Source of the DNA: a virus
Direction: 5' to 3' (one strand)
Length of the DNA: 64,000 bases
IMG/VR virus record: IMGVR_UViG_3300028536_000001
Span: 40,874-104,873 of that record
How positions within the stretch are numbered: position 1 is the first letter of the stretch; the number at the start of each line of letters is the position of its first letter. Below, piece after piece: positions 3,132 through 62,143 of the stretch. The notes under the pieces are model-generated. The model saw only the letters and a program-made list of their open reading frames with translations. It made no database searches and had not been told where the DNA came from. The position numbers were made by a program, and so were the translations under genes.

Positions 3132-4319
3132 GTGGCGATACTATATACCAGCCCCACTCGGGGATATCCAGTAACGGATCATAGTTACTCCGCAGGATCG
3201 CTCTACGATGACTGCCCTAAGAAGTACGACTATGACCGCCGTCAGGGATGGAAGGAGAAGGAGAAACGCGCCTCATCTGCCTTCGGTACCGCAGTTGAAT
3301 CGGCCATCCAGTATCACCACAACTCTGGAATGGTACTATCCGACACCATCGATGAATGGAAACGGCTGTGGGTGCTTCAGCAGGATAATAAAGAACTGGT
3401 ATACTCAGATAAAGATGGCGACTGGGAATCTATGTATAGGCAGGGCGAGCAGATGGTTCGGCTGTACATCGCTGTGTTGCCTACGTTACCTATCCAAAAT
3501 CCACAGTTTCAGTTGAACTACAAGAAGGAGTACTACCCAGATACTGAATACGCGGGATTAAAAGATACAGCCTTCCTAGATATGGAAGTGACCGCTCCTT
3601 GGAATCACCCCTTGCTACCTCCTTTAGAAGAATGTCCGGAAAATGGACAACGCAAAATCTTCATTGACATCAAAACTTCGGCAGCCTTGTATCCGGTAGA
3701 TCCCCGCATGATAAAACTGGACCCGCAGCTACGGAGATATGCGTGGACCTCCGGAATCGAGACTGCCTGCTTCCTAGTTTTGGTAAAACGAGGAATGGAG
3801 TTTGAAAAGGGCGATACGGTTACTGTCCTTGAAGCGTACAGCGAGCAACATCCGGTAGGTACTGAGTTGGTAGTTTTAGATGCCTCAAAAGAAGTCTTGA
3901 CTTTGCTGACACCAAAGATCTATGATCAGTACGACGCGGAGGCTAAAGGGCTAAAAGGAAACGTACTCAAGGAAAAGAAACAGGAATTTGCGGATCGATT
4001 TGGAATTCAGGCTGCCAAGCATGAGGTTACAAAGCAGCGACTACAATTCTTGGCCGCGATAATCTCTGAAGAAGAGCGGCACGAAGCAGGTGAACTGGCT
4101 GGAATGCAGGCTCGGAATATCTGCGATTCCAACATTCAGAATTTCTTTCCCAAGCGACCTGGAATCAAGTTTCCGAATAATCACTGCACCTTCTGTTCGC
4201 ATTTAGGATTGTGCATCGGTGATGAAAAAATGATAAAGAATAAACTAATTCAAATCGGAAACTCACGCCCATCTCGGAGTGAAGAGTCGTCTGATTCGGA
4301 TTGGCTTTTTGACTTATAA
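3132..4319 (+). CDS. PD-(D/E)XK (RecB-like) nuclease superfamily protein
   Basis: N-terminal SYSAGSLYDDCP, GTAVESAI, FIDIKTSA, QLRRYAW, C-terminal HCTFCSHLGLC (Fe-S/Zn ligands). Confidence 0.8.
   Translation: MAILYTSPTRGYPVTDHSYSAGSLYDDCPKKYDYDRRQGWKEKEKRASSAFGTAVESAIQYHHNSGMVLSDTIDEWKRLWVLQQDNKELVYSDKDGDWESMYRQGEQMVRLYIAVLPTLPIQNPQFQLNYKKEYYPDTEYAGLKDTAFLDMEVTAPWNHPLLPPLEECPENGQRKIFIDIKTSAALYPVDPRMIKLDPQLRRYAWTSGIETACFLVLVKRGMEFEKGDTVTVLEAYSEQHPVGTELVVLDASKEVLTLLTPKIYDQYDAEAKGLKGNVLKEKKQEFADRFGIQAAKHEVTKQRLQFLAAIISEEERHEAGELAGMQARNICDSNIQNFFPKRPGIKFPNNHCTFCSHLGLCIGDEKMIKNKLIQIGNSRPSRSEESSDSDWLFDL
3633..3649 (+). repeat. 17-bp dispersed motif TGTCCRGAAAAYGGACA (exact)
   Basis: TGTCCGGAAAATGGACA inside the PD-(D/E)XK gene. 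Confidence 0.85.
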
Positions 4320-4391
4320 AGAAAACTTTTCTGTCAAAATCGGGTTTATATACAATACGAAGTAAAAACAGATATACTGTATCCGAAAAAT

Positions 4392-5498
4392 ATGATTACC
4401 TATACTTATAAAATTCGTCCAACCAAAGCACAAGAAGTTAAACTTTTGGAAACACTGGACTTAACTCGTAAACTTTATAATGACGGTCTTCGAGAATTGA
4501 TTGATCATTACGAGAAAATAGGAAAATATCTTCATAGATACGATCACGATAAACTACATAATTCAAAAAGACATCCCACTCTTCAAGGATTTGTAGTAGA
4601 TGAAACATTAAATCGACTGCATAAATCTTTTGCAGATTTTTTTAGAGGCATAAGAGAAAAACGTAAAGTTGGGTTTCCTCGTTTTAAATCGCAAGATCGT
4701 TGGCATAGTTTTTCTTCTTCTTGTTCGGGCGGATTGACTTTGCGTGGAACTTTATTTTATGCGGGAAAAAAAATGGGAGGAAAAATTCGAGTTAATGTTA
4801 CTCGGCCTCTCCAAGGTAATCAAAAGATATCACGTATTCTCAAGAAACCATCAGGCTGGTATCTTCAAATCGTAACTGATTATGAAAAACCTAAACTAGA
4901 ACCAAATACTCAATCAATTGGCTTGGATTTTGGGATTAAAAATCTTGTTGCTGATAGCGAAGGAAACTTCGTAGAAAATCCACAGTTTCTAAAGCAGTCG
5001 CTAAAGAAACTTAGAATTGCACAGCGCTCCAAAGACCGTCGAAAAATAGGGTCTAATCGTCGCAAAAAAGCAACACAAGTTGTATCCAACGTTTACGAGA
5101 TAGTTCACAATCAGCGCCTCGACTATTATCATAAAGTAACTAGACGATATGTCAACGACTGTGGTCTGATCGTAATAGAAGATTTAAAACCATCGAATAT
5201 GATTAAAAACCACAACTTAGCTCGTTCAATTATGGATAGCAGTTGGGGAATGCTAAGAAATCTACTTGAAGTCAAAGCGGCAGAAGCTGGTCGTCAAGTA
5301 ATCGCAGTACCACCACATTACACATCTCAAAAATGTTCTAAGTGCGGAGAAATAGTTCAGAAATCATTAAGCGTTCGCACTCATTCTTGTCCTTGTGGTT
5401 ACATCGATGATCGAGATGTGAACGCAGCAAAGAATATCTTAGGGGCCGGGTTGGCCCTTCAGGCGTTAACGTATGGCACTAGCCAACGCGTTGCCTGA
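4392..5498 (+). CDS. tnpB: TnpB RNA-guided endonuclease (IS200/IS605 family), solo, no tnpA
   Basis: YTYKIRPT N-terminus, GFPRFKS, RuvC residues GLDFG / VIEDL / DRDVNAAKNI all intact, zinc finger TSQKCSKCG...HSCPCG. Confidence 0.95.
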   Translation: MITYTYKIRPTKAQEVKLLETLDLTRKLYNDGLRELIDHYEKIGKYLHRYDHDKLHNSKRHPTLQGFVVDETLNRLHKSFADFFRGIREKRKVGFPRFKSQDRWHSFSSSCSGGLTLRGTLFYAGKKMGGKIRVNVTRPLQGNQKISRILKKPSGWYLQIVTDYEKPKLEPNTQSIGLDFGIKNLVADSEGNFVENPQFLKQSLKKLRIAQRSKDRRKIGSNRRKKATQVVSNVYEIVHNQRLDYYHKVTRRYVNDCGLIVIEDLKPSNMIKNHNLARSIMDSSWGMLRNLLEVKAAEAGRQVIAVPPHYTSQKCSKCGEIVQKSLSVRTHSCPCGYIDDRDVNAAKNILGAGLALQALTYGTSQRVA

Positions 5499-5550
5499 GA
5501 AAGCCTGCGTAAGCAGGAGAAGAAATTAAGTAACCAATGGTTGGAGGAGT
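5400..5550 (+). ncRNA. putative TnpB omega/reRNA scaffold plus guide (boundaries approximate)
   Basis: Overlaps the tnpB 3' end: GGGCCGGGTTGGCCC hairpin, CAGGCGTTAAC...GCGTTGCCTG pairing, then CCTGC-GTAA-GCAGG terminal hairpin, as in IS605-type right ends. Confidence 0.6.
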
Positions 5551-5586
5551 TGTGAGTCTAAAAATCTATATAAAGAGTGTAAAACT

Positions 5587-5781
5587 GTGAATCAGCCCCG
5601 ATATAGTGACGCAAAACGTAAAGTACTATCTTATTTTCCTGAAGCATACGCAGAGTTCTGGGTGGATGCTTGGGACGATGGTTTCATTATATACTCTAAT
5701 TCTCTTGGCAAAATTTTAGGTAACGGACAGAATTCTTCAGATGCGTGGGAAGACGCAGCAAATAACTTGGAGGAACTATGA
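5587..5781 (+). CDS. hypothetical protein
   Basis: ORF track; starts MNQPRYS. Confidence 0.55.
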   Translation: MNQPRYSDAKRKVLSYFPEAYAEFWVDAWDDGFIIYSNSLGKILGNGQNSSDAWEDAANNLEEL

Positions 5782-6239
5782 ACTATAAAAATGGAGATGT
5801 AATTCGTTACAAACCTGACAACAATTGGTGTAAGCACGGTATTGCAGTGGTGTATCGAACCTGCAATTCTGTATTGGCGAAAGATACCTACTGGGGAATT
5901 GGAGCACACGGAGATTCTGGATGGATACACGAATCCGATATAGAGGGAAGTACTTTAATCGGCAATATTTATGAGTTCCGGGCCGATAATTACAGAAACG
6001 AAAAACATTACGCAGATACAGATAAGTTTTATATACCCATGGGTGGAGGTTCCGCTCAAATGTGGTACCGCGTAGGAGCACAACCTATCCCGTCTTTAGT
6101 TGCTGCACATTTTCAATGTCTTGTAGAAAAAGCAGAAACCGGTGTTAGAGCCGCTGAAGGTACTCTTCTTCGGAGAAAACAGGAACTTGAAGAATATTTG
6201 AAACAACACCCTGAGATTAGTCTTAAGAAAGAAATTTAA
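5778..6239 (+). CDS. hypothetical protein
   Basis: ATGA-coupled ORF, 153 aa. Confidence 0.65.
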   Translation: MNYKNGDVIRYKPDNNWCKHGIAVVYRTCNSVLAKDTYWGIGAHGDSGWIHESDIEGSTLIGNIYEFRADNYRNEKHYADTDKFYIPMGGGSAQMWYRVGAQPIPSLVAAHFQCLVEKAETGVRAAEGTLLRRKQELEEYLKQHPEISLKKEI

Positions 6240-53680: not shown

Positions 53681-53910
53681 AGGCTCTCCTTTAGATACAG
53701 CGGAAACATTGAAGCTAAAATCTTAAAATCGCGGTCATTCTGGGCGGCTACCTTGTTGTACCATCCGTTCGCGAGAGCGTCACTGTCATGCGGGTATTCC
53801 TTGGATGCGATAGTTTTCATCTGGCCGCGTAGAGAAAGGTTGTATAACATAAGATCATTGTAGCACAGGTTGAGCGGAATTGCAAATCTTAGATTCCATC
53901 CAATCAGCAA
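53677..53910 (-). CDS. hypothetical protein (true start probably internal)
   Basis: ORF track; overlaps the HNH 3' end. Confidence 0.4.
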   Translation of the reverse strand: MLIGWNLRFAIPLNLCYNDLMLYNLSLRGQMKTIASKEYPHDSDALANGWYNKVAAQNDRDFKILASMFPLYLKESL

Positions 53911-54406
53911 TTTTTCTGTGTTCCTCGGCTGTACCGTTGTTCTTTATGCGGTTAGCTCGATAGGACATAACTACAACATTATCCTTGAAATACCCCAATT
54001 CAGGTCGAATTCTATCTATACTAGGTGAACCGTCTCTATTGCTATCAACACTTCTGGGCTGAAGTTTTATCCCCAAAATTGGACAATATTCAGGGATTAT
54101 AATATCTTCTTCTTTAAGATCAAAAGGAACATTAAACCTTTTCGCTCTCTGTTTAGCAGCATAAACTAAATGCCGTTCTAAATACTTGATGTAGCGGGCT
54201 TGTTGCTGAGAGATCATTTTCTCTCGATTGTTCTGGTACCGTTCAGCCCACCGCTGTTTTGTACGATCCATATTCTTCGCCCGATTAGCCCTGACCTTTT
54301 TAACATCACAAGGTTTACAAAGAGAACGAAGACCGTCTTTCTGGCCCTTATCTTTACTAAAGCACTCAAGCAGCTTTTCTTCACGACATATTCTACAGAT
54401 TTTCAT
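53855..54406 (-). CDS. HNH endonuclease
   Basis: ATG at 54406 with GAGG SD; CPILG...SPSIDRI.P..GY..DNV.VMS..AN..KN. Confidence 0.88.
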   Translation of the reverse strand: MKICRICREEKLLECFSKDKGQKDGLRSLCKPCDVKKVRANRAKNMDRTKQRWAERYQNNREKMISQQQARYIKYLERHLVYAAKQRAKRFNVPFDLKEEDIIIPEYCPILGIKLQPRSVDSNRDGSPSIDRIRPELGYFKDNVVVMSYRANRIKNNGTAEEHRKIADWMESKICNSAQPVLQ

Positions 54407-54493
54407 ATTTTCCTCAAGTTGCAGTAGCGGACGCACTTGAGGGAACGCCCGCCGCCGCATTTAATTGCACCTGATGATCAATCAGATAATTCT

Positions 54494-54564: not shown

Positions 54565-57500
54565 CTAGCTGCTGGAAGTCTCTGATTGCAATCGTCTTAT
54601 AGTCATTGTTGAACCGGGCATCGTTGTTACTCACCTTGCGGCGGGATAGATCATTTCTGTCTATCTCTGTATGTCGCCATACAGTCCGGACTATCGCACA
54701 ACCGCTTGACTGCGGTTTCTTCTCGTTTAGTCTCTTCAGCCGAAATTATCTTGCTGTTTGTTGTCTCCCAAAGGAGAGGTTCAATTTGATTAGAGAAGAT
54801 TTATACTGCGCCAAGGTTAACGCAGTGACGTAGTGAACTTAACATTATAAGCGCACCAACCCGTTTGTTTTCAGCAACTTAGCATCTCTGCTAGTTGGCG
54901 CTCACAATCGCTCGTGAGATGAGACTGTATCTTAGCTTTCGCTTCTATCATGTCAGTCGTTACGGTGCCTTGCGGTTACCTCGGGATTGTCCACTAGGGA
55001 GTTTCCCCGATATAGATAGATTTAAAATCGGCAGTTTGACGTACCGATCTGTCTTGCTGGATCAGAAACACTACCCTGTTGAGGAGCTTCCTGAATACAT
55101 TGGATTATTGCGTCTTTGACGACTCTACATGTTTCCAAGTAGTTTGGACTATATCTTCATCCCAGTAGGATGGCATCGTGTAGTCTCTACGGCTCCCAGT
55201 TAGGTTGCCTCGGGGTTACCCTCGCGGGCCTTCACCGATATAGATGTATTTTCAGTTAGCATTGCTGCTAAAAGTGCCTAGTTTCCAGAGCAATTTGTAG
55301 TTTCTTTCCAGATATTGTTTAAGTACTTTTAAGTACATTCTCATAGTTTCTTATGAGGTCGGACTATGTCTTCACTTTCGTGTCTAGCGTATAGTCTCTA
55401 AGGATTCCCTTGCGGGTCTTTCCTCGGCGTTACCTTTACAGGCGTTCACCGATATAGCTAAATTAAGTGGCAAAAGTCTTTACCACTTTCCGGATTTCTT
55501 CCAAGAAAAACGGCGAACAACGCGTCATCTCCGTAGAGATAAGTATTATCAGGTTTGTTTTAGGCCGCCAAGCTCACGCGTGGGGCTCTCACTTCATCTC
55601 TGAAGTGCTCAGGCTCTATCTTCACTACATGGCTTCCTTTAGAAGTAGTCGTAGTGTCTTGCGTATTAGTCGTTACAGAACGCCCTTTTTTGTTTAACTC
55701 CATCATTTTAAGTCTATAGGGTGCTCTTTTCGCAGGATCGTTCACGTTGAAAAGAGATTGATAATCCAACATCAATTGTAACTGCTCACACTTAATTTTC
55801 ATGTAAGGTTTCACGGCTTGTAAGAAATCGTGAATATCTTGTTTCCGACTGAGAGACCAGAGATAGCAATCTTTGTTCTTTTTGTCTGGAACGATGCGCA
55901 GTTGAAGATTTCCACCAAATTTGGCATACAACCAATCGGTTAGAATTCTGTTGGTATTACCTACTATGACTTTACAACCGTACGTATAGCAAACTACACC
56001 TTTACGGTTTTTGTTCTTGACGCGGTATATGCTTATACATCCTTCGCAATCCATTGCTGAGGCTGCGTAAGCTGCGTCGTGCGGAGATAAAATATACAAG
56101 GGCTTTCCTCGGTATTGTGAGTTATAATATAATACATTATAACACATATCCACCGATTTAGCAAGATTTCGTACCAAATTTTTTAGTACGTGTTTCCACC
56201 AATAGTAACAGTAGGAGCAGTGGAGGTCTGCTTGAATGTCGCACCACCAAAGGTGATAACGTCGTCGTTTGAAAGCGGTGCAAGCAGCTTCTCGCGAGTG
56301 TCGTCGCCACGTTTGAGGATGTCGGTCAAGCCGTTCCAGGACTGATCGTTCAACACGTCTCTCACTACGTTAGGATGAATAATCCCTCCGTACTGACCGT
56401 TAGGATACAACGGACGTGCGTTTACTGATACTAGGGACTGAACAGCCGAGCGAATGTTGTTCGCGGTCAAGTAAGTGCCGTTTGCAAGCTGGATGTTTAC
56501 GCTTGAATCGACGCCCGTTGCGGTGTCAGAGGTGTACTGAACAAGAGTGTTCAGGGTTAGGGCCAAACGATAGTTTAGCTCTGTTGCCAGGTTGTTTAGA
56601 AGACCTGGTTCGTCAATTGCAACATCACAATTATGTTTTGGATCTTCAGTATCACTACTGAAATCAACTTACATTCACATGTAAGATCGGACTCTATCTT
56701 CACCGTAAAGGTGTCCAGCGTATTAGCCTCTGGGGTTCCCTTTCGGGTTACCTGCTTCTAATCTTGCTGCCAAGAGTTTGAAGCATTTGGCTGGATTTAA
56801 TGGCACCAGATTTAGTTTAGTGCCAAGTCAGATGCGTTGATATAATCGCTGTACTGACCCACGGTCGCGTTAATTTTGGTTGACGATTCGGAAATAGGTG
56901 ATCCTACTGTACCTTCCAGTTATGTTAACTAATCATCGCTGAATAGCTCGGACTATATCACCATCCCGAAGGATGTGTATCGTGTAGTCTCTAAGGATTC
57001 CCTTGCGGGTCTTTCCTCGGGATTGTCCTCTAGGGAGTTTCCCCGATATAGATACATTTTCGATTAGCATTACTGCTAAAAGCGCCAAAAGTTTAGCGGC
57101 CTGATTTGTGTTAGCAGGCAGAAGAGCGTAGGAGTAGAACTGGATGTTATTTCCAGAGTGCATTGGAAGCGGCCACTGTTTAGCCATTCCGAGGACATAT
57201 TCTTATGGGTCACGTTTGACCGCGCTGCATATTACTATGCAGATGAGACTATATCATTTGATATCGGCGTGTAGTCGTTACGGATTCCCTTGCGGGTCTT
57301 TCCTCGGGATTGTCCTCTAGGGAGTTTCCCCGATATAGCCAATTTTATTCACCACCTCAATGATGGTGTGTTCGCTTTCAAGTTAGGGCTGTGTGTTTAG
57401 GCTGCGTGAACAGCGCACTCGTAATCACTTACGAGAACAGACTCTATCTTCAAATTGCGTAGTATACTAGACAAATTAGAGAAAATGCTTCTCTTTGACT

Positions 57501-58415
57501 CGTATATTAGACATTTTGTCTTACGTTATGGTCGTTTCGGTGCAAACTCTTAATGACTGTAGCATGTCGTTCACTTCTTTCTTTTTCTCCACCAAATAGG
57601 GGATGATAGAAAGAAGAAACCGTTCGGAATTGGTTTCCATATCTTCGCTGTGGGGTGTGATTTTATCTGTTATTCCCGTTGCGTCAATTATCCCAGCTTG
57701 ATAGGCTGCGATCTCTCGTCTGGTCTTCATAGTCTGTGAAGATTCTGTAAACTCGTCCATTTTCTGGATAACGTACTTTGCGTCATCCTTTTTCTCGAAC
57801 AAAAAGGGGTAGAGTTCCTTTAATAAAGAGGGAAGTGCTTTCTCACCGGTCAGTTTCCAGTAGTAGATCTTCTTCTCGTCGTCAGGTACTCGGATGAATA
57901 CGCCGCCAAAATGAAGTACTAGGAACTTGCAGACTTTACGTGTTGTATTTCCTGTATGAACGGAATACTGAATTTTGTGAATTACACCGTCATCTTGACC
58001 GATGAAACCACCTGTGTCCAACATTCCCGATAAATAGGCTAACTTAGACGTTCGTGTCATTTATGAGTTTGTTACCTCCGTCTTGTCTCTTCCATTGTAT
58101 ACCAAAGAGAGATTAACGGATATGGTAAGATTTTAAAGCAACCATTGTTAAAAAATTGCTTTTCTTTCGTCGTTTTGTTTAAGCTATCAACGTTCCCGTT
58201 GATGCGTGCTCGCGATCACTCGCGAGATCAGACTGTATCTTAGACTGTTGTCTCTGTACGTTTCAGTCGTTAAGGAGCCAATTCGGTTTCCTTGGGATTG
58301 TCCACTAGGGAGTTTCCCCAATTTAGTACAGTTACCTACCAGAAAGTTAGTAGGTTGCAAGCAGGTTGGGTAGTTGACCCGAAGATACCTGTATGCTAGA
58401 TGGGGTATAAGCCAT
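54565..58415 (-). CDS. major capsid protein (N4-gp56-like), 11 exons, 329 aa after splicing
   Basis: Exons (5'->3' on - strand): 58415-58349, 58170-58155, 57388-57363, 57195-57095, 56916-56819, 56627-56185, 55549-55482, 55308-55289, 55097-55043, 54861-54820, 54618-54565 = 990 nt, in frame with no internal stop. Lies directly after the scaffold gene; contains GQY.DY, IIHP...D and DP..Q.G.W motifs. Confidence 0.9.
54619..54819 (-). ncRNA. group I intron 10 (201 nt)
   Basis: P1 ACUGCGU/GCGCAGU, P10 AACC/GGUU, P3 UCUUCUC/GAGAAGA, P7 GAGACUA/UAGUCC, terminal G. Confidence 0.88.
54862..55042 (-). ncRNA. group I intron 9 (181 nt)
   Basis: P1 AUCGGU/GCCGAU, P3 UCUAUC/GAUAGA, P7 ACGACUG/CAGUCU, terminal G. 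Confidence 0.9.
55098..55288 (-). ncRNA. group I intron 8 (191 nt)
   Basis: P1 UGCU/GGCA, P3 CAUC/GAUG, R GUAGAGACUACAC, S GAAGAUAUAGUCC, terminal G. Confidence 0.9.
55309..55481 (-). ncRNA. group I intron 7 (173 nt)
   Basis: P1 AGUGGU/GCCACU, P10 CUUUU/GAAAG, P3 UUAGC/GCUAG, P7 GAGACUA/UAGUCC, terminal G. Confidence 0.9.
55560..56099 (-). CDS. intron-encoded single-motif LAGLIDADG homing endonuclease
   Basis: AAYAASAMDCEGCISI motif; probable TTG start at 56099 after GAGG SD; the 3' end overlaps intron P7/P8/P9. Confidence 0.85.
   Translation of the reverse strand: MYILSPHDAAYAASAMDCEGCISIYRVKNKNRKGVVCYTYGCKVIVGNTNRILTDWLYAKFGGNLQLRIVPDKKNKDCYLWSLSRKQDIHDFLQAVKPYMKIKCEQLQLMLDYQSLFNVNDPAKRAPYRLKMMELNKKGRSVTTNTQDTTTTSKGSHVVKIEPEHFRDEVRAPRVSLAA
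56136..56164 (-). promoter_or_regulatory. sigma70-type promoter inside intron 6
   Basis: TTGCTA-17-TATAAT upstream of the LAGLIDADG start. Confidence 0.65.
56628..56818 (-). ncRNA. group I intron 5 (191 nt)
   Basis: P1 GGCACU/GGUGCC, P3 UCCAGC/GCUGGA, R GAGGCUAAUAC, S AAGAUAGAGUCC, terminal G. Confidence 0.88.
56917..57094 (-). ncRNA. group I intron 4 (178 nt)
   Basis: P1 CGCU/GGCG, P10 ACUUUU/GAAGGU, P3 GUAUC/GAUAC, P7 GAGACUA/UAGUCC, P8 CAUCC-UUCG-GGAUG, terminal G. Confidence 0.9.
57196..57362 (-). ncRNA. group I intron 3 (167 nt)
   Basis: P1 CACCAU/GUGGUG, P3 UUGGC/GCCGA, P7 ACGACUA/UAGUCU, terminal G. Confidence 0.9.
57389..58154 (-). ncRNA. group I intron 2 (766 nt, ORF-containing)
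   Basis: P1 AAAGCAAU/GUUGCUUU, P3 UCUUAC/GUAAGA, S element GAAGAUAGAGUCU (P7 imperfect), terminal G. Confidence 0.8.
57521..58060 (-). CDS. intron-encoded LAGLIDADG-like protein (likely degenerate nuclease)
   Basis: LAYLSGMLDTGG and IAAYQAGIIDATG helices; lies between P6 and P7 of intron 2. Confidence 0.75.
   Translation of the reverse strand: MTRTSKLAYLSGMLDTGGFIGQDDGVIHKIQYSVHTGNTTRKVCKFLVLHFGGVFIRVPDDEKKIYYWKLTGEKALPSLLKELYPFLFEKKDDAKYVIQKMDEFTESSQTMKTRREIAAYQAGIIDATGITDKITPHSEDMETNSERFLLSIIPYLVEKKKEVNDMLQSLRVCTETTIT
58171..58348 (-). ncRNA. group I intron 1 (178 nt)
   Basis: P1 ACCUACU/GGUAGGU (U.G), P10 CUUUC/GAAAG, P3 UGUAC/GUACA, P7 ACGACUG/CAGUCU, terminal G. Confidence 0.9.
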
Positions 58416-58447
58416 TTGTTTTATTGGTGTTACATTCGTCTGTGGCG

Positions 58448-59599
58448 CTAACGTCCGTTTTTCTGACGATTTAGTCTATAGGTTCTCATTGCCGATTCGA
58501 CTACATCGTCGGACCAATTGTTAACGTCTTCGTCTGGGAGCGCCTGTTCTGGAGAGGCAAGGGCTGGTCCGCCCGTAACTCGTATTCCAAAGTTGGCCGC
58601 TCGCGTTCTGCCTGCTGGCTGCTGATTATCGACAGGAGGTACAGCAGGTGCCGGTACAGGCTCCGAAGTTGGAGTCGGTACAGGCGGTTGTGGTTCCGGT
58701 ACAGGCTTTACAGTCTGGCGCGGAGCCGGTGGTTGAGGCGCGACTTCCAGCAATTCGCTGGCAAGTAAGTCGTCTTTCGCCTGTTCTAGGTGTTCAACTG
58801 TCCATACGCCCCGTTCGAGCAGGTCTATGGTAAGTTGATCCATATCTTCGTCTGGCTGAATAGCTCTTCCGAGACTTTTCTTTACCAGATACCGAACTAC
58901 TGTGTAAAAATTACGCTGTGTTGGGTAGTAGTCGGGATTTTGCTGAACGAAAGCATTGGCCGCTGCGCTGATATCAGCGAGCTGGTGCGTCAGGGTGACT
59001 TCGTTCAATTTCTGTGCGACTTCCTGTGGGGAAAGTCCGAATCTCTTCTCGTAGTAGTAGTCTTGCGCGGCCACGGGGTTGGATTCAAAAAGTGTTTTGT
59101 ACTCCCATGCTTCGTCGGCAGTCAGGTCGTGGACGACTACTTTCTTAGGCGCGTTAGCCTTGATTGGAACCGAAGTTGCGCTTCCCTCTCCCAGTTTCAC
59201 CTTGCGGTCAAGTTCTCGGACCCGTTTGGTGGCGTTGCCTTTTCCAAGCGCTAGGCGGGTAAGCAGTTCGTCCTTTGTCTTACCGTAAAATCTCTCAGGC
59301 TGCGTGCCCGGAATGTGTGTGTCTACTTCGGCGTACCACTGACCCTTACGTTTGTCAATAGTTACGGTAACGCCGTTTTCATCCGTTATAGTACTTGGCT
59401 GCGGTTCGGGTTCTGGAGCAGGTGTTGGTTCTGGAACCGCCGCTACCGGTTCTGGTACAAGGTCGGAAACCGGTTCTGGAGCAGGCTCGACAAAACCTTC
59501 TTCTTGAGCAATGCGAGGAAGTTCCTCGAAATATGTGTTTGAGTTATCTGCTAGCCGGAAATCTTCATCCAACCAAGGATCAATTGTAGGTGTTGCCAT
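58448..59599 (-). CDS. capsid scaffolding protein
   Basis: Acidic P/E-rich low-complexity protein between portal and capsid; helical core. Confidence 0.7.
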   Translation of the reverse strand: MATPTIDPWLDEDFRLADNSNTYFEELPRIAQEEGFVEPAPEPVSDLVPEPVAAVPEPTPAPEPEPQPSTITDENGVTVTIDKRKGQWYAEVDTHIPGTQPERFYGKTKDELLTRLALGKGNATKRVRELDRKVKLGEGSATSVPIKANAPKKVVVHDLTADEAWEYKTLFESNPVAAQDYYYEKRFGLSPQEVAQKLNEVTLTHQLADISAAANAFVQQNPDYYPTQRNFYTVVRYLVKKSLGRAIQPDEDMDQLTIDLLERGVWTVEHLEQAKDDLLASELLEVAPQPPAPRQTVKPVPEPQPPVPTPTSEPVPAPAVPPVDNQQPAGRTRAANFGIRVTGGPALASPEQALPDEDVNNWSDDVVESAMRTYRLNRQKNGR

Positions 59600-60045: not shown

Positions 60046-60074
60046 ATTATACCACAAGTCTTAGCTATTGTCCA
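60046..60074 (-). promoter_or_regulatory. sigma70-type promoter, near-leaderless
   Basis: TGGACA-17-TATAAT, 8 nt before ATG 60037. Confidence 0.6.
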
Positions 60075-62143
60075 CCAAAACCAGCGTTTCCAGGTTCTCC
60101 GGTTATGGCTTCCGTCGATCCAGAAGTTTCGATTGCGTGCCTAATGATGTCGCGCCCAGCTCTCGCGTAATTTTCTTGGTCCAATTCAGCGGCTTTGGAC
60201 TGTTCTTTCTGAATTTGCGCTTGTTGCTGCGCTTGAATCTTTTGCTGATTCAAAGCGGCTGGACTATTCTGCTGTGCTCTTTGTACTTCCTGCTCCGACA
60301 TAGGAACCACTACAGAGTAGTATTCATCAGACATTTCGGCGGCTTCGAAGAAGAGGTGCAAGAACTCGTCTACATCCAATTTCTTTTGCTGTGCTTCTAA
60401 CTGCTGAAGCACAAACTGATTGGTCATGAAATTCGTTAGTACTGGTAGCGCCTGAGCCAAGTTACGTCTGACTGACATCTTTGCGCCAGCCAAGATACTG
60501 AACTTAACAACAGCGTTCAATAACTCAATGATATCGCCTTTGTTCTTGAAATACGCGCTCTGAAGTTCTTCGTTCAGAATCCGTTTAATTTCCTTTACCG
60601 GAAGTAGACCGCGATTCATTTCATGAACGTTGTATAGAAACGGCGTGATAACCTGATCGGCTAGCCTATCTACAAAATCTGCTGGTCTGTTACCTGCTCC
60701 TGCGCCGAGCAAGTTCGCTCCCGCGGCGGTGCGAGCTAGGTTGGAGTGCCCGGATGATCCGGCTATTCCTTGCGAGGACATTTCGTTTACACCAGAAATT
60801 TGTCCTACGCGAGATTCAGATAATCCTAAGTGCTGGAAGGCTTCTGGAATACTCGGGGTGCGATTCAAAGGCTGGATGTCGTCCTTATTTTCGACATCGA
60901 TCATGCGGCCAGGTGCAATACGGATACTCTGGGTTGGGATCGACTTCCCGCGTACTCGTGTAAACACACCCTGAAGATTCAGGGCCATGTTATCGAGCGA
61001 TGTATTTGTTACACCTTGCTGCAAGCGCTGTTCTGCACCGAGCAGCTTTCCGAGACCCATACCCCAAAAAGCTTCTGGTACGTCCACAAAATTTACCGAG
61101 AAGAAAGGAATTACCCCGTATGGATTATCTCCGTTACAGATAACAAGTTTCTTTTGTAGAACTACGTAGCATTTCTCGTTATCCCAGCGTTCCAAAACTT
61201 CAAGCGGTTCGTTGAAGGGGTCGATGGTCGCGTCTTCCCAGCGAGGTTCTGCGCGAAAATCCCATAGCGGGTTCTTAGCGGTCAGTTCCTGTGGGGCTGG
61301 ATCTGCCAATTCCCTTGGCGGCATGAATAGTTGCAGTAGTTCAGCCTTAGAAGGGATCTTCCAACCGGGTTGATCCTTCATCTTGACAAGATCATCGTAG
61401 GTCATATATATGCGGTGAATAACAAACTTCGCTTCGCGTATATCTGGAACATCTAGGGTTGAATCTACGAGAACGTGTCGTGGGCTTGTAATGTGATCAA
61501 AAAACGGACGCTCTACGTTGATTTCAATATCGCGTGAAACGATATCTTCGTCGTCCGGTTCAATATCAATATCCGGAGCGCCGGGAACTCCGGATGGGAT
61601 AGATACGTTCGATCCAGATCGTTCCCAAATCGTACGTTTCTTTTTGTAAGATTCCCAGCCCCATTTCCAAATCGCAGTACCGTACAACGCGGCGCTTGCT
61701 ATTCCCCAACGAAGAGTTCGTTTGAACTTGATATCTTCGAGTTGGAAACCAAGTATCTCACCAACTGCCCTAGAGGCGTCTGCGGTGGTTCCAGGTTTTG
61801 CCTGAACTATAAAGGGAGGATTCTCATAGAACAAACCATTTACAATTTGGGGAGTAACCGCAGTCACGGTGGTGGCTACGGTGTAGAAAGGAATGTTAGC
61901 ACGAGGTACAGAAGTCCCTTCCCAACAAATCGTACTGGCTGGTGACACAAATAAGGTCGCTGACTGCGCCCAACCAGTGATCCAAGCTTTGGTAGAAGAG
62001 AAATTTTCAGCCTTAATGGAATCCTGAATGACAATTTTTAATACCACATCATCGTCAAAAGATCCAGTAACCCTAGCATGCTCTGCTTGAGCAGGAGTGA
62101 TAGGAAGTTGCGGTGATGATGCGGGCTGATCTAAGAGAGCCAA
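60065..62143 (-). CDS. portal protein
   Basis: 692 aa after the terminase; YGTAIWKWGW, PEAFWGMG, QISGVN, Q-rich barrel C-terminus. Confidence 0.88.
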   Translation of the reverse strand: MALLDQPASSPQLPITPAQAEHARVTGSFDDDVVLKIVIQDSIKAENFSSTKAWITGWAQSATLFVSPASTICWEGTSVPRANIPFYTVATTVTAVTPQIVNGLFYENPPFIVQAKPGTTADASRAVGEILGFQLEDIKFKRTLRWGIASAALYGTAIWKWGWESYKKKRTIWERSGSNVSIPSGVPGAPDIDIEPDDEDIVSRDIEINVERPFFDHITSPRHVLVDSTLDVPDIREAKFVIHRIYMTYDDLVKMKDQPGWKIPSKAELLQLFMPPRELADPAPQELTAKNPLWDFRAEPRWEDATIDPFNEPLEVLERWDNEKCYVVLQKKLVICNGDNPYGVIPFFSVNFVDVPEAFWGMGLGKLLGAEQRLQQGVTNTSLDNMALNLQGVFTRVRGKSIPTQSIRIAPGRMIDVENKDDIQPLNRTPSIPEAFQHLGLSESRVGQISGVNEMSSQGIAGSSGHSNLARTAAGANLLGAGAGNRPADFVDRLADQVITPFLYNVHEMNRGLLPVKEIKRILNEELQSAYFKNKGDIIELLNAVVKFSILAGAKMSVRRNLAQALPVLTNFMTNQFVLQQLEAQQKKLDVDEFLHLFFEAAEMSDEYYSVVVPMSEQEVQRAQQNSPAALNQQKIQAQQQAQIQKEQSKAAELDQENYARAGRDIIRHAIETSGSTEAITGEPGNAGFGGQ

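Follow-up and report, generated by a model that had tools for sequence, protein, structure and literature searches.

Structure of the capsid locus

A major capsid gene interrupted ten times lies on the minus strand of the window (the whole 64,000-nt stretch of DNA analysed, to which all coordinates refer), which is part of a complete 106.5-kb soil phage genome with terminal repeats. Introns account for 2861 of the 3851 nt of the gene (74.3%), and excision of the ten segments in silico left a single 990-nt frame encoding 329 aa, to which each exon contributes once and in the correct order.

54565..58415, minus strand: capsid gene, ten introns and 11 exons
58349..58415, minus strand: exon 1, 67 nt; ATG at 58415; residues 1-22 plus 1 nt
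58155..58170, minus strand: exon 2, 16-nt micro-exon
57363..57388, minus strand: exon 3, 26-nt micro-exon
57095..57195, minus strand: exon 4, 101 nt
56819..56916, minus strand: exon 5, 98 nt
56185..56627, minus strand: exon 6, 443 nt; residues about 103-250; spine helix and A-domain
55482..55549, minus strand: exon 7, 68 nt
55289..55308, minus strand: exon 8, 20-nt micro-exon
55043..55097, minus strand: exon 9, 55 nt
54820..54861, minus strand: exon 10, 42 nt
54565..54618, minus strand: exon 11, 54 nt, TAG stop included

The three micro-exons span only 16-26 nt. The first-pass annotation had read the region as a major capsid gene with ten group I introns, and this proved correct to the nucleotide: the coordinates that it gave for the ten segments are exact, and both the 990-nt frame and the quoted 329-aa sequence were reproduced. 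The frame was said to be joined across three intron phases, and we found phases of 1, 2, 1, 0, 2, 1, 0, 2, 0 and 0 for introns 1 to 10. Stops near the 5′ splice site, previously ascribed to several introns, occur in nine of the ten, where the first in-frame stop falls 0-35 nt past that site; the exception is intron 4, with its first in-frame stop 160 nt into the intron.

Identity of the spliced product

The spliced product aligned without gaps, over residues 1-329 and at 84% identity, to an uninterrupted ORF on a related viral contig (L002:5692-6678), a comparison that had been proposed as a check and that confirms all junctions. It also aligned end to end, at 39%, with the major head protein of Tunturiibacter phage Tunturi_3, and it matched the phrog_1357 major head protein (E 4e-14); exon 6 matches both of these, the Tunturi_3 protein by tblastn. 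There are more than 230 full-length homologs of about 328 aa, several of them annotated as N4-gp56 family major capsid protein. The search for an HK97 fold, likewise suggested beforehand, was done on the intron-less homolog. Its AlphaFold model (pLDDT 83) gave the phage N4 capsid as the top Foldseek match (9e99_B, E 4.5e-15), with dozens of HK97 capsids ranking below it. The product is an N4-gp56-type major capsid protein with a predicted HK97 fold, the fold being judged from this model of the homolog. No second capsid gene was found in the 106.5-kb genome. The capsid exons are under purifying selection, with a pN/pS of 0.19 against L002 and a dN/dS of 0.05 against a short related contig, L007.

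Ribozyme signatures of the ten introns

Nine regions matched by Rfam RF00028, which the first-pass annotation had named as a test, together cover all ten introns; four are above the gathering score, one of them merging introns 4 and 5, and five are sub-threshold (E 3e-10 to 0.03). A custom clade-specific covariance model (R1) agreed, detecting all ten, including introns 2 and 6, which were outside its training set (E about 2e-5). An R1 search of the 106.5-kb genome gave no intron of this family outside the capsid gene. Eight introns are compact (167-201 nt) and the other two carry endonuclease ORFs.

58171..58348, minus strand: intron 1, 178 nt, ORF-less; RF00028 40.3 bits, E 3e-10; R1 116 bits (training member); P1 of 7 bp with U:G, P10 of 5 bp
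57389..58154, minus strand: intron 2, 766 nt; RF00028 29 bits, E 1.6e-4; R1 34.8 bits, E 2.7e-5 (untrained); long P8
57196..57362, minus strand: intron 3, 167 nt, ORF-less, smallest of the ten; RF00028 50.7 bits, over gathering score; no P2, and no P8 (deleted in the R1 alignment)
56917..57094, minus strand: intron 4, 178 nt, ORF-less, with P2; RF00028 63.5 bits (merged with intron 5); R1 128.6 bits
56628..56818, minus strand: intron 5, 191 nt, ORF-less; RF00028 match merged with intron 4 (3′ part); R1 109 bits
55550..56184, minus strand: intron 6, 635 nt, with ORF; RF00028 22.1 bits, E 0.019; R1 35.4 bits, E 2e-5 (untrained)
55309..55481, minus strand: intron 7, 173 nt, ORF-less; RF00028 50.1 bits, over gathering score; R1 115.7 bits
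55098..55288, minus strand: intron 8, 191 nt, ORF-less, with P2; RF00028 58.4 bits; R1 104.8 bits
54862..55042, minus strand: intron 9, 181 nt, ORF-less; RF00028 32 bits, E 2e-5; R1 117.3 bits
54619..54819, minus strand: intron 10, 201 nt, ORF-less; RF00028 21.3 bits, E 0.03; R1 68.4 bits; P1 of 7 bp, most diverged of the short introns

Introns 3 and 4 have a 57-nt exact block in common. The core of intron 2 is split, with P3-P6 at about 58136-58065 and P7-P9 at about 57531-57417 in an alignment of both halves; read from the sequence, its P7 has a C/A mismatch, and P3 of intron 6 is CUUGC/GCAAG.

In all ten cases the 5′ exon ends in U, the intron ends in G, and U(-1) can be paired with a G of the internal guide; the exon-side P1 has 4-8 bp (weakest in introns 4 and 8, at 4 bp each). 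U(-1), omega-G, P7 and J8/7 are retained throughout. The U:G pair in P1, the terminal G and the P7 element claimed earlier for every segment are therefore all present; covariation, claimed for P3, was borne out there and extends to P4, P8 and P9. The core structure has 86% of its cells paired, compared with 31-41% in slid controls, and contains 18 compensatory pairs. Exon/guide duplexes averaged -7.85 kcal/mol for cognate and -2.96 kcal/mol for non-cognate combinations (Mann-Whitney p 1.7e-6), every guide pairing most strongly with its own exon; P10 is modestly cognate-specific (p 0.01). As far as sequence evidence reaches, a chance origin of these signatures is excluded, and the ten segments interrupting the single major capsid gene are genuine group I introns. 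Some nevertheless look marginal as predicted ribozymes, namely intron 3 (P8), introns 4 and 8 (P1) and intron 2 (P7).

Endonuclease genes

57521..58060, minus strand: intron 2 ORF, 179 aa, in the P6 loop region; I-CreI-like LAGLIDADG homing endonuclease
55560..56177, minus strand: intron 6 ORF, 205 aa, spanning the P5/P6 region and the 3′ half of the core; I-CreI-like LAGLIDADG homing endonuclease
53855..54460, minus strand: free-standing endonuclease gene, HNH/EndoVII-like, 201 aa; phrog_3322 E 5e-34, phrog_1035 E 4e-31

The two intron ORFs are 29% identical (E 3e-6) and both match phrog_5046 (E 2e-10 for intron 2, 4e-17 for intron 6). Matches in the PDB were to I-CreI derivatives for intron 2 (E 0.007-1) and to the I-CreI family for intron 6 (E 9e-5 to 0.1); the latter ORF also matched Pfam LAGLIDADG_1 (E 0.12) and Atlas LAGLIDADG clusters (score 0.92-0.93, TM 0.63), and its start is probably the ATG of residue 11. 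The free-standing gene adjoins the capsid gene directly downstream, with a perfect TTGACA-17-TATAAT promoter-like match ahead of it at 54522-54494. Its product may help the introns to move.

Introns in related capsid genes

Among 80 relatives, 34 complete capsid genes (about half) are intron-less, and the remaining relatives have 1-6 introns each, at about 20 sites. All 96 R1 matches in the relatives lie inside capsid genes and on the gene strand. With about half of the relatives intron-less and the rest at one to six, capsid genes of this family are a hotspot for introns, of which the present genome is the extreme. At sites common to relatives the introns are too diverged for clear orthology, and the insertion sites showed no enrichment at conserved residues (p 0.43). 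The only hint of co-conversion comes from L007, a possibly chimeric contig, where synonymous divergence is seen around sites 1-3.

Comparison with known systems

Ten introns were described in the first-pass annotation as far beyond known cases. The number stands as the largest load in one phage gene that we found in the literature, but the background offered with it was dated, since capsid-gene group I introns have been published. Outside phages, fungal mitochondrial cox1 and cob have ten or more group I introns per protein gene, many with LAGLIDADG ORFs, in a presence/absence mosaic among relatives. Those introns are much larger and organellar, with protein maturases and nuclear splicing factors, whereas the present case is a virus of bacteria, with translation coupled to transcription.

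The crAss-like Delta/Zeta phages also have group I introns in core genes, the major capsid gene among them, together with LAGLIDADG ORFs; one Zeta-group capsid gene is split into five fragments, and a genome can hold up to 14 introns (Yutin et al. 2021, PMC7886860). However, those introns are spread over many genes and recognised mainly through endonuclease domains, whereas here all ten interrupt one 990-nt coding sequence, with none of the family elsewhere in the genome, eight have no ORF, and the virus belongs to an N4-gp56-type capsid lineage from soil. The Jug (jumbo gut) phages likewise have many small group I introns in essential genes (about 18.5 per genome, averaging about 206 nt), with free-standing and intron-borne endonucleases nearby, terL split into 2-3 fragments, and splicing backed by metatranscriptome reads (PMC12880540). 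Their genomes are 360-402 kb, compared with 106.5 kb here, where the ten fall in one gene, at one per 99 coding nt.

Cluster J mycobacteriophages are reported to have group I introns in the capsid gene (PMC3706429), and orf142 of Staphylococcus phage Twort has three (Landthaler & Shub 1999, cited in PMC11878797). Exon skipping between neighbouring ribozymes is a known risk in Twort, which resembles our case in having several mutually related introns in one structural/late-region gene, but with three introns rather than ten; the present short introns are much smaller (167-201 nt), most lack P2, and exons go down to 16 nt. Bastillevirinae and T4-type phages (T4 td/nrdB/sunY) have the same ribozyme class and homing-endonuclease association, with up to three introns per gene; theirs lie chiefly in genes for DNA polymerase, terminase and nucleotide metabolism, average about 800 nt and usually have an ORF (PMC11878797).

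Origin and consequences of the array

We consider it highly probable that the ten introns are self-splicing and form one paralogous family, which most likely accumulated stepwise as selfish mobile elements in a hotspot gene family. The lack of any intron in about half of the close relatives speaks for passengers that the phage can do without. Spread among co-infecting relatives is inferred to occur by endonuclease-driven homing with co-conversion, for which the two LAGLIDADG endonucleases, and perhaps the adjacent free-standing enzyme, would serve; occasional jumps to new sites would need guide retargeting.

The array might instead act as both shield and weapon, destroying the target sites of capsid-directed homing endonucleases that circulate in related phages while its own LAGLIDADG enzymes and the free-standing endonuclease next door cut the intron-less capsid genes of co-infecting relatives; in that case selection would favour the array rather than just tolerate it. 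Interference between co-infecting phages through intron endonucleases has been reported, and the two LAGLIDADG genes, the adjoining endonuclease gene with its promoter-like site, and the highly polymorphic presence/absence at about 20 sites in relatives from similar soil habitats would all fit. Eight of the ten introns have no endonuclease, however, the cleavage specificity of the enzymes is not known and co-conversion tracts have not been demonstrated, and we regard this possibility as doubtful.

Much less can be said for a regulatory device, the 'timer or metabolic gate' of the first-pass annotation, in which ten GTP/Mg-dependent splicing events would delay or gate capsid synthesis by cell state. 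It would account for the confinement of the family to one late, highly expressed gene, the sole capsid gene, and early stops would make capsid impossible without splicing, but any bacterial intron within a translated gene would be equally expected to have them. We found no supporting evidence: the absence of introns from 34 complete capsid genes among the 80 close relatives and the variable counts (1-6) and sites in the others mean that intron number and positions are not conserved, unlike those of a tuned regulator, and homing endonucleases in two introns are a hallmark of selfish spread.

It is still harder to credit that at least one intron no longer splices, leaving a dead capsid gene in a defective phage. 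The missing P8 of intron 3, the short P1 of introns 4 and 8 and the low RF00028 scores of introns 2, 6 and 10 could be taken as decay, but the spliced frame is fully open, without indels relative to the intron-less homolog, its exons are under strong purifying selection, the genome is complete with its terminal repeats and has no other capsid gene, and the catalytic signatures from U(-1) to J8/7 are kept in all ten. Least credible is a contig merging intron-bearing alleles of co-occurring strains, with no real genome having all ten: stretches as long as 57 nt that the intron cores share exactly, Logan unitigs that break inside the repeated cores of introns 3, 4, 7 and 9, and the rearranged or chimeric look of L007 would allow it, but single unitigs (from the same sample as the assembly) link introns 1-2-3, 3-4, 4-5-6-7, 7-8-9 and 9-10 at an even depth of 15.6-21, the source run has no intron-less joint, every exon is present once and in order, and the P3 strands upstream and downstream of the repeated blocks in introns 3, 4, 7 and 9 are complementary, so the intron halves are correctly matched.

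Expression would depend on splicing, which is inferred without RNA data. A single pre-mRNA of about 3.85 kb would cover the whole gene. In it, a site-specific internal guide (P1 with U:G) would let each intron recognise the 5′ exon that belongs to it; the intron would then fold its conserved P3-P9 core with a P3/P7 pseudoknot and be excised by two guanosine-dependent transesterifications, and the 11 exons would be joined into a 990-nt mRNA for the 329-aa capsid protein. Presumably the early in-frame stops release ribosomes ahead of the ribozyme. Because the only capsid gene of this phage holds the ten introns, production of its shell requires the removal of all ten from RNA.

Removal of ten segments restores the capsid reading frame

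Across the capsid gene (58415-54565, minus strand), the ORF list holds fragments only. When ten segments (i1 to i10 in gene order) are removed, 11 exons of 67, 16, 26, 101, 98, 443, 68, 20, 55, 42 and 54 nt are joined into one open frame of 990 nt, exactly reproducing the 329-aa product quoted in the first-pass annotation. The segments make up 2861 of the 3851 nt of the gene (74.3%), and three neighbouring pairs are only 16-26 nt of exon apart. Exon 6, the largest, matches by itself both phrog_1357, a major-head-protein family, and a protein of the Tunturiibacter phage Tunturi_3 that is annotated as its major head protein. The ten introns explain all of the insertions, each with a core of its own, and no core-less 'mini-intron' has to be assumed.

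A search of viral contigs found an uninterrupted capsid gene on a related contig, L002 (IMGVR_UViG_3300005614_000040). The spliced product aligns to its protein over residues 1-329 with 84% identity and zero gaps, and all ten junctions therefore lie within continuous conserved sequence. Alignment to an intron-less homolog had been set beforehand as a possible refutation of the proposed structure, which survived it: as expected for group I introns, excision restores a conserved coding sequence at all ten junctions. An end-to-end alignment was also obtained with the Tunturi_3 protein (39%). The exons are under purifying selection, with a pN/pS of 0.19 against L002 (synonymous sites saturated) and a dN/dS of about 0.05 against L007, a second related contig.

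On the minus strand at 58416-58447, there is no Shine-Dalgarno-like sequence before the capsid ATG, the upstream sequence being CACCAATAAAACAA-ATG, which would fit a host making weak or no use of Shine-Dalgarno sequences. Judged from homologs alone (the Tunturiibacter phage protein and a hit in a Sulfotelmatobacter MAG), an Acidobacteriota host is suggested.

The spliced product is predicted to be an HK97-fold capsid protein

There are >230 full-length homologs of ~328 aa, several of which carry the JGI label 'N4-gp56 family major capsid protein'. The NCBIfam model TIGR04387 scored 42.8 bits (E 4e-11), under its cut-off of 60, and covered the N-terminal half only; this indicates a distant relative of the N4-gp56 family and not an equivalog. 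Pfam returned no significant family for the capsid homolog. A profile of the capsid family found nothing meaningful among PDB sequences, and a fold search was therefore needed.

Folding was carried out on P0001, the 84%-identical protein of the intron-less L002 gene, and not on the spliced sequence itself. A first model from a shallow alignment (pLDDT 55) was discarded in favour of a deeper alignment with 75 diverse homologs taken from an exhaustive profile search, which gave a pLDDT of 83.3 and a pTM of 0.77. With this model, the top Foldseek match in the PDB was the phage N4 capsid (9e99_B; E 4.5e-15, probability 1.00, TM 0.65), with dozens of HK97-fold capsids ranking behind it. The HK97 fold (defined by spine helix, A-domain, P-domain and E-loop), the absence of which would have counted against the first-pass annotation, is supported for the homolog by these matches.

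The gene occupies the capsid position of a head module (portal, scaffold, capsid), and the gene order is the same in Tunturi_3.

Features of the head module
60065-62143: SU10-type portal (E 1e-22)
58448-59599: scaffold-like ORF, 383 aa, proline-rich, directly upstream of the capsid gene
54565-58415, minus strand: capsid gene, 11 exons and ten group I introns

The IMG/VR record is a complete 106.5-kb genome with terminal repeats. No second capsid gene was found in these 106.5 kb, every match to the homolog being to exons of the same gene.

The ten segments have group I intron cores

The Rfam group I intron model, RF00028, gave nine matches that between them cover all ten introns. Four exceed the gathering score and cover five introns, one of these matches merging i4 and i5; the sub-threshold matches are to i1 (40.3 bits), i9 (32), i2 (29), i6 (22) and i10 (21), with E from 3e-10 to 0.03.

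An alignment of whole introns by MAFFT was rejected because P1/P2 and the 3' tails were misaligned; the core alone was therefore used, realigned with a covariance model. On the alignment of the eight short cores, we drew a structure that runs from P3 to P9 and contains the P3/P7 pseudoknot. In this structure 86% of core cells are paired, versus 31-41% when the partners are slid. Compensatory changes occur in 18 core pairs, mostly in P3, P4, P8 and P9, and none of 500 shuffles reached the observed values. P3 thus covaries as first described, and so do the other three helices. R1, a clade-specific covariance model of the core trained on the eight short introns only, also finds the ORF-bearing i2 and i6 that were left out of training, at 34.8 and 35.4 bits (both with E about 2e-5), and aligns all ten introns. 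On these results the conserved catalytic core (P3-P9 with the P3/P7 pseudoknot and J8/7) is supported, the exception being i3, which is without P8. Across the whole 106.5-kb genome, R1 has no further match outside the ten capsid introns.

The splice sites were also as first described: a U ends all ten 5' exons, a G (omega-G) ends all ten introns, and every intron allows a P1 with a U(-1):G pair. The exon side of P1 is 4-8 bp, with only 4 bp in i4 and i8. Guide duplexes average -7.85 kcal/mol with their own 5' exon versus -2.96 kcal/mol with the other nine, and the cognate exon ranks first for eight of the ten guides (Mann-Whitney p 1.7e-6). A P10 of 4-6 bp with the 3' exon is available in most introns and is stronger for cognate than for non-cognate exons (p 0.01), which is modest support. 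In nine of the ten introns, an in-frame stop falls 0-35 nt past the 5' splice site, confirming the early stops that had been reported. Splicing, including guanosine-dependent self-splicing activity, is inferred from these features, without RNA data: the sequencing runs listed were all DNA runs from soil metagenomes.

The introns form a mosaic family, with cores 50-78% identical and exact blocks common to i3/i4 (57 nt), i4/i7 (36 nt) and i1/i9 (26 nt). A P2 hairpin is found only in i4 and i8, being absent from i3 and five other short introns; P5abc and P7.1/7.2, as read from the R1 alignment, are absent. The smallest intron, i3 (57196-57362, minus strand; 167 nt), is without both P8 and P2, its P3' being followed after ~5 nt by J8/7. 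Most introns have a similar A-rich tail ahead of the terminal G. The cores of i2 and i6 are split, with P3-P6 upstream of an ORF and the 3' half downstream, which places the ORFs in the P6 loop region.

Endonuclease genes within and beside the array

Endonuclease-related features
57521-58060, minus strand: ORF within i2, 179 aa
55560-56177, minus strand: ORF within i6, 205 aa
54494-54522, minus strand: TTGACA-17-TATAAT, a perfect sigma-70-like promoter match, between the capsid stop and the endonuclease gene
53855-54460, minus strand: free-standing HNH/EndoVII-like endonuclease, directly downstream of the capsid gene

Going by database matches alone, the two intron ORFs resemble LAGLIDADG endonucleases of the I-CreI type. 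The i6 ORF matches the I-CreI family in the PDB (E 9e-5 to 0.1), LAGLIDADG_1 in Pfam below the cut-off (E 0.12) and LAGLIDADG clusters in the Atlas (0.92-0.93, TM 0.63). The i2 ORF is homologous to it and has weaker PDB matches to the same family (E 0.007-1). Pfam gave no significant family for either. Both ORFs are members of phrog_5046, and since both look like LAGLIDADG proteins, the PHROG label 'HNH endonuclease' is probably a misnomer. The free-standing endonuclease gene could encode a homing nuclease that is expressed independently, beside the intron array.

The array is not an evident assembly artefact

Because the intron cores repeat, independently built unitigs from the DNA runs were compared with the capsid region as a check. 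Unitigs of the source sample tile the region at an even depth of 15.6-21, and breaks fall only inside i3, i4, i7 and i9, within their repeated cores. The links i1-i2-i3, i3-i4, i4-i5-i6-i7, i7-i8-i9 and i9-i10 are each made by single unitigs; no intron-less joint was present among the source-sample unitigs. In i3, i4, i7 and i9 the P3 strands flank the repeated block and are complementary, so the two halves have been matched correctly. As the unitigs come from the assembly's own sample, this is a check of consistency and not independent proof.

One contig was considered as a near-identical second witness and rejected. L007 (IMGVR_UViG_3300015241_000256, 3415-5974) has near-identical exons. Its CDS nt 1-164 are intron-less and synonymously diverged, and next comes a copy, at 97% identity, of the i2 body, exon 3 and i3, fused to the 3' half of i4; CDS nt 165-210 are absent. 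The contig was set aside because it looks like a rearranged allele or else a chimera assembled over the repeated cores.

Separately, a low-depth contig from another soil study (run X2) joins an i1-like 3' end (58173) to exon 6 (56614), near the i5 site. This hints at a relative with an i1-like intron at another position.

Introns vary in number and position among relatives

We surveyed 80 related capsid loci from IMG/VR. Thirty-four complete capsid genes are uninterrupted and the remainder have 1-6 introns; the most intron-rich relatives found are L095 (3270-6348), with six R1 matches, and L090 (1232-4098), with five. All 96 R1 matches lie inside capsid genes and on the gene strand, and none was found in the 5-kb flanks of these loci.

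Insertions occur at roughly 20 positions among the 80 loci. Sites of the present gene that are reused in relatives lie near residues 22, 28, 36, 250, 273-280, 298 and 312 (L095 shares those near 36, 277, 297 and 312), while relatives use others at about 41, 55, 76, 91, 187-200, 236, 266 and 304-307 that are unoccupied here. By blastn, introns at shared sites have only short core matches to the ten, although those at site 312 hint at a resemblance to i10. There was no enrichment of insertions at conserved residues (mean information 1.88 versus 1.86, p 0.43).

Public clusters contain dozens of 57-230-aa 'proteins' that are exon fragments of this capsid family and whose start or end coincides with an intron site (residues about 39-41, 55, 89-94, 102, 186, 250, 277 and 298). 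Gene callers routinely shatter the capsid genes of this family, and marker-gene surveys of soil viromes will therefore miss or miscount these phages.

Origin and possible roles of the array

In the mechanism that we propose, the gene would be transcribed as one long pre-mRNA from which each of the ten ribozymes would excise itself. The best explanation of the array is that selfish mobile introns accumulated step by step in a gene that is a hotspot for them. They would have spread when phages co-infect a cell, driven by homing endonucleases and co-conversion, and would now and then have jumped to new sites. The intron-less half of the clade speaks for dispensability of the introns, and the endonucleases and the site polymorphism for their mobility.

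A competitive role, in which the introns confer site immunity and the phage attacks intron-less rivals, is possible but unshown. We regard as improbable a more elaborate reading that combines a capsid-endonuclease arms race with cooperative or ordered splicing by the ten ribozymes. Under that reading, the introns would not be mere independent passengers: each would make one target site immune, the phage would turn its own nucleases on rivals that lack introns, and capsid output would depend on cooperative or ordered ribozyme action. The stripped-down introns (i3, which has no P8, the introns of 167-181 nt that lack P2 and the neighbours across 16-26-nt exons) would be aided by, or swap exons with, adjacent ribozymes. 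If it were true, a bacterial virus would here have a natural splicing system made up of multiple ribozymes. The suggestion in the first-pass annotation that ten splicing events act as a timer or gate on virion assembly drew no support from anything testable here.

Phage genes with group I introns are a classic finding, and recent work has described phages rich in introns. Twort orf142 has three introns, and up to three per gene occur in Bastillevirinae (PMC11878797). One crAss-like Zeta MCP is broken into five fragments, and as many as 14 introns occur per genome (PMC7886860). Jug phages carry about 18.5 small introns each in genomes of 360-402 kb, with splicing confirmed from RNA (PMC12880540). 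Going by its title, PMC3706429 describes splicing of a capsid intron in Cluster J mycobacteriophages. Ten introns in one gene still goes well beyond the published cases that we found, which have 3-4 per gene. Given these parallels, the array does not represent a new class of element; it is an extreme case of a phenomenon already known and, it appears, widespread.

What sets it apart is density: ten ribozymes in a 990-nt CDS, one per 99 nt, with exons down to 16 nt, in the sole capsid gene. This raises the questions of how ten adjacent and partly identical ribozymes fold and splice correctly with ribosomes trailing the polymerase, and how exon skipping is avoided. It also bears on the minimum size of a natural group I ribozyme, the introns here measuring 167-201 nt, with P2 missing from most and P8 from one. 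The capsid genes of the clade, otherwise similar, have ~20 insertion sites and hold 0-10 introns each. This makes the clade a natural data set on how introns are gained, are lost and change site, and on competition between soil phages driven by endonucleases.
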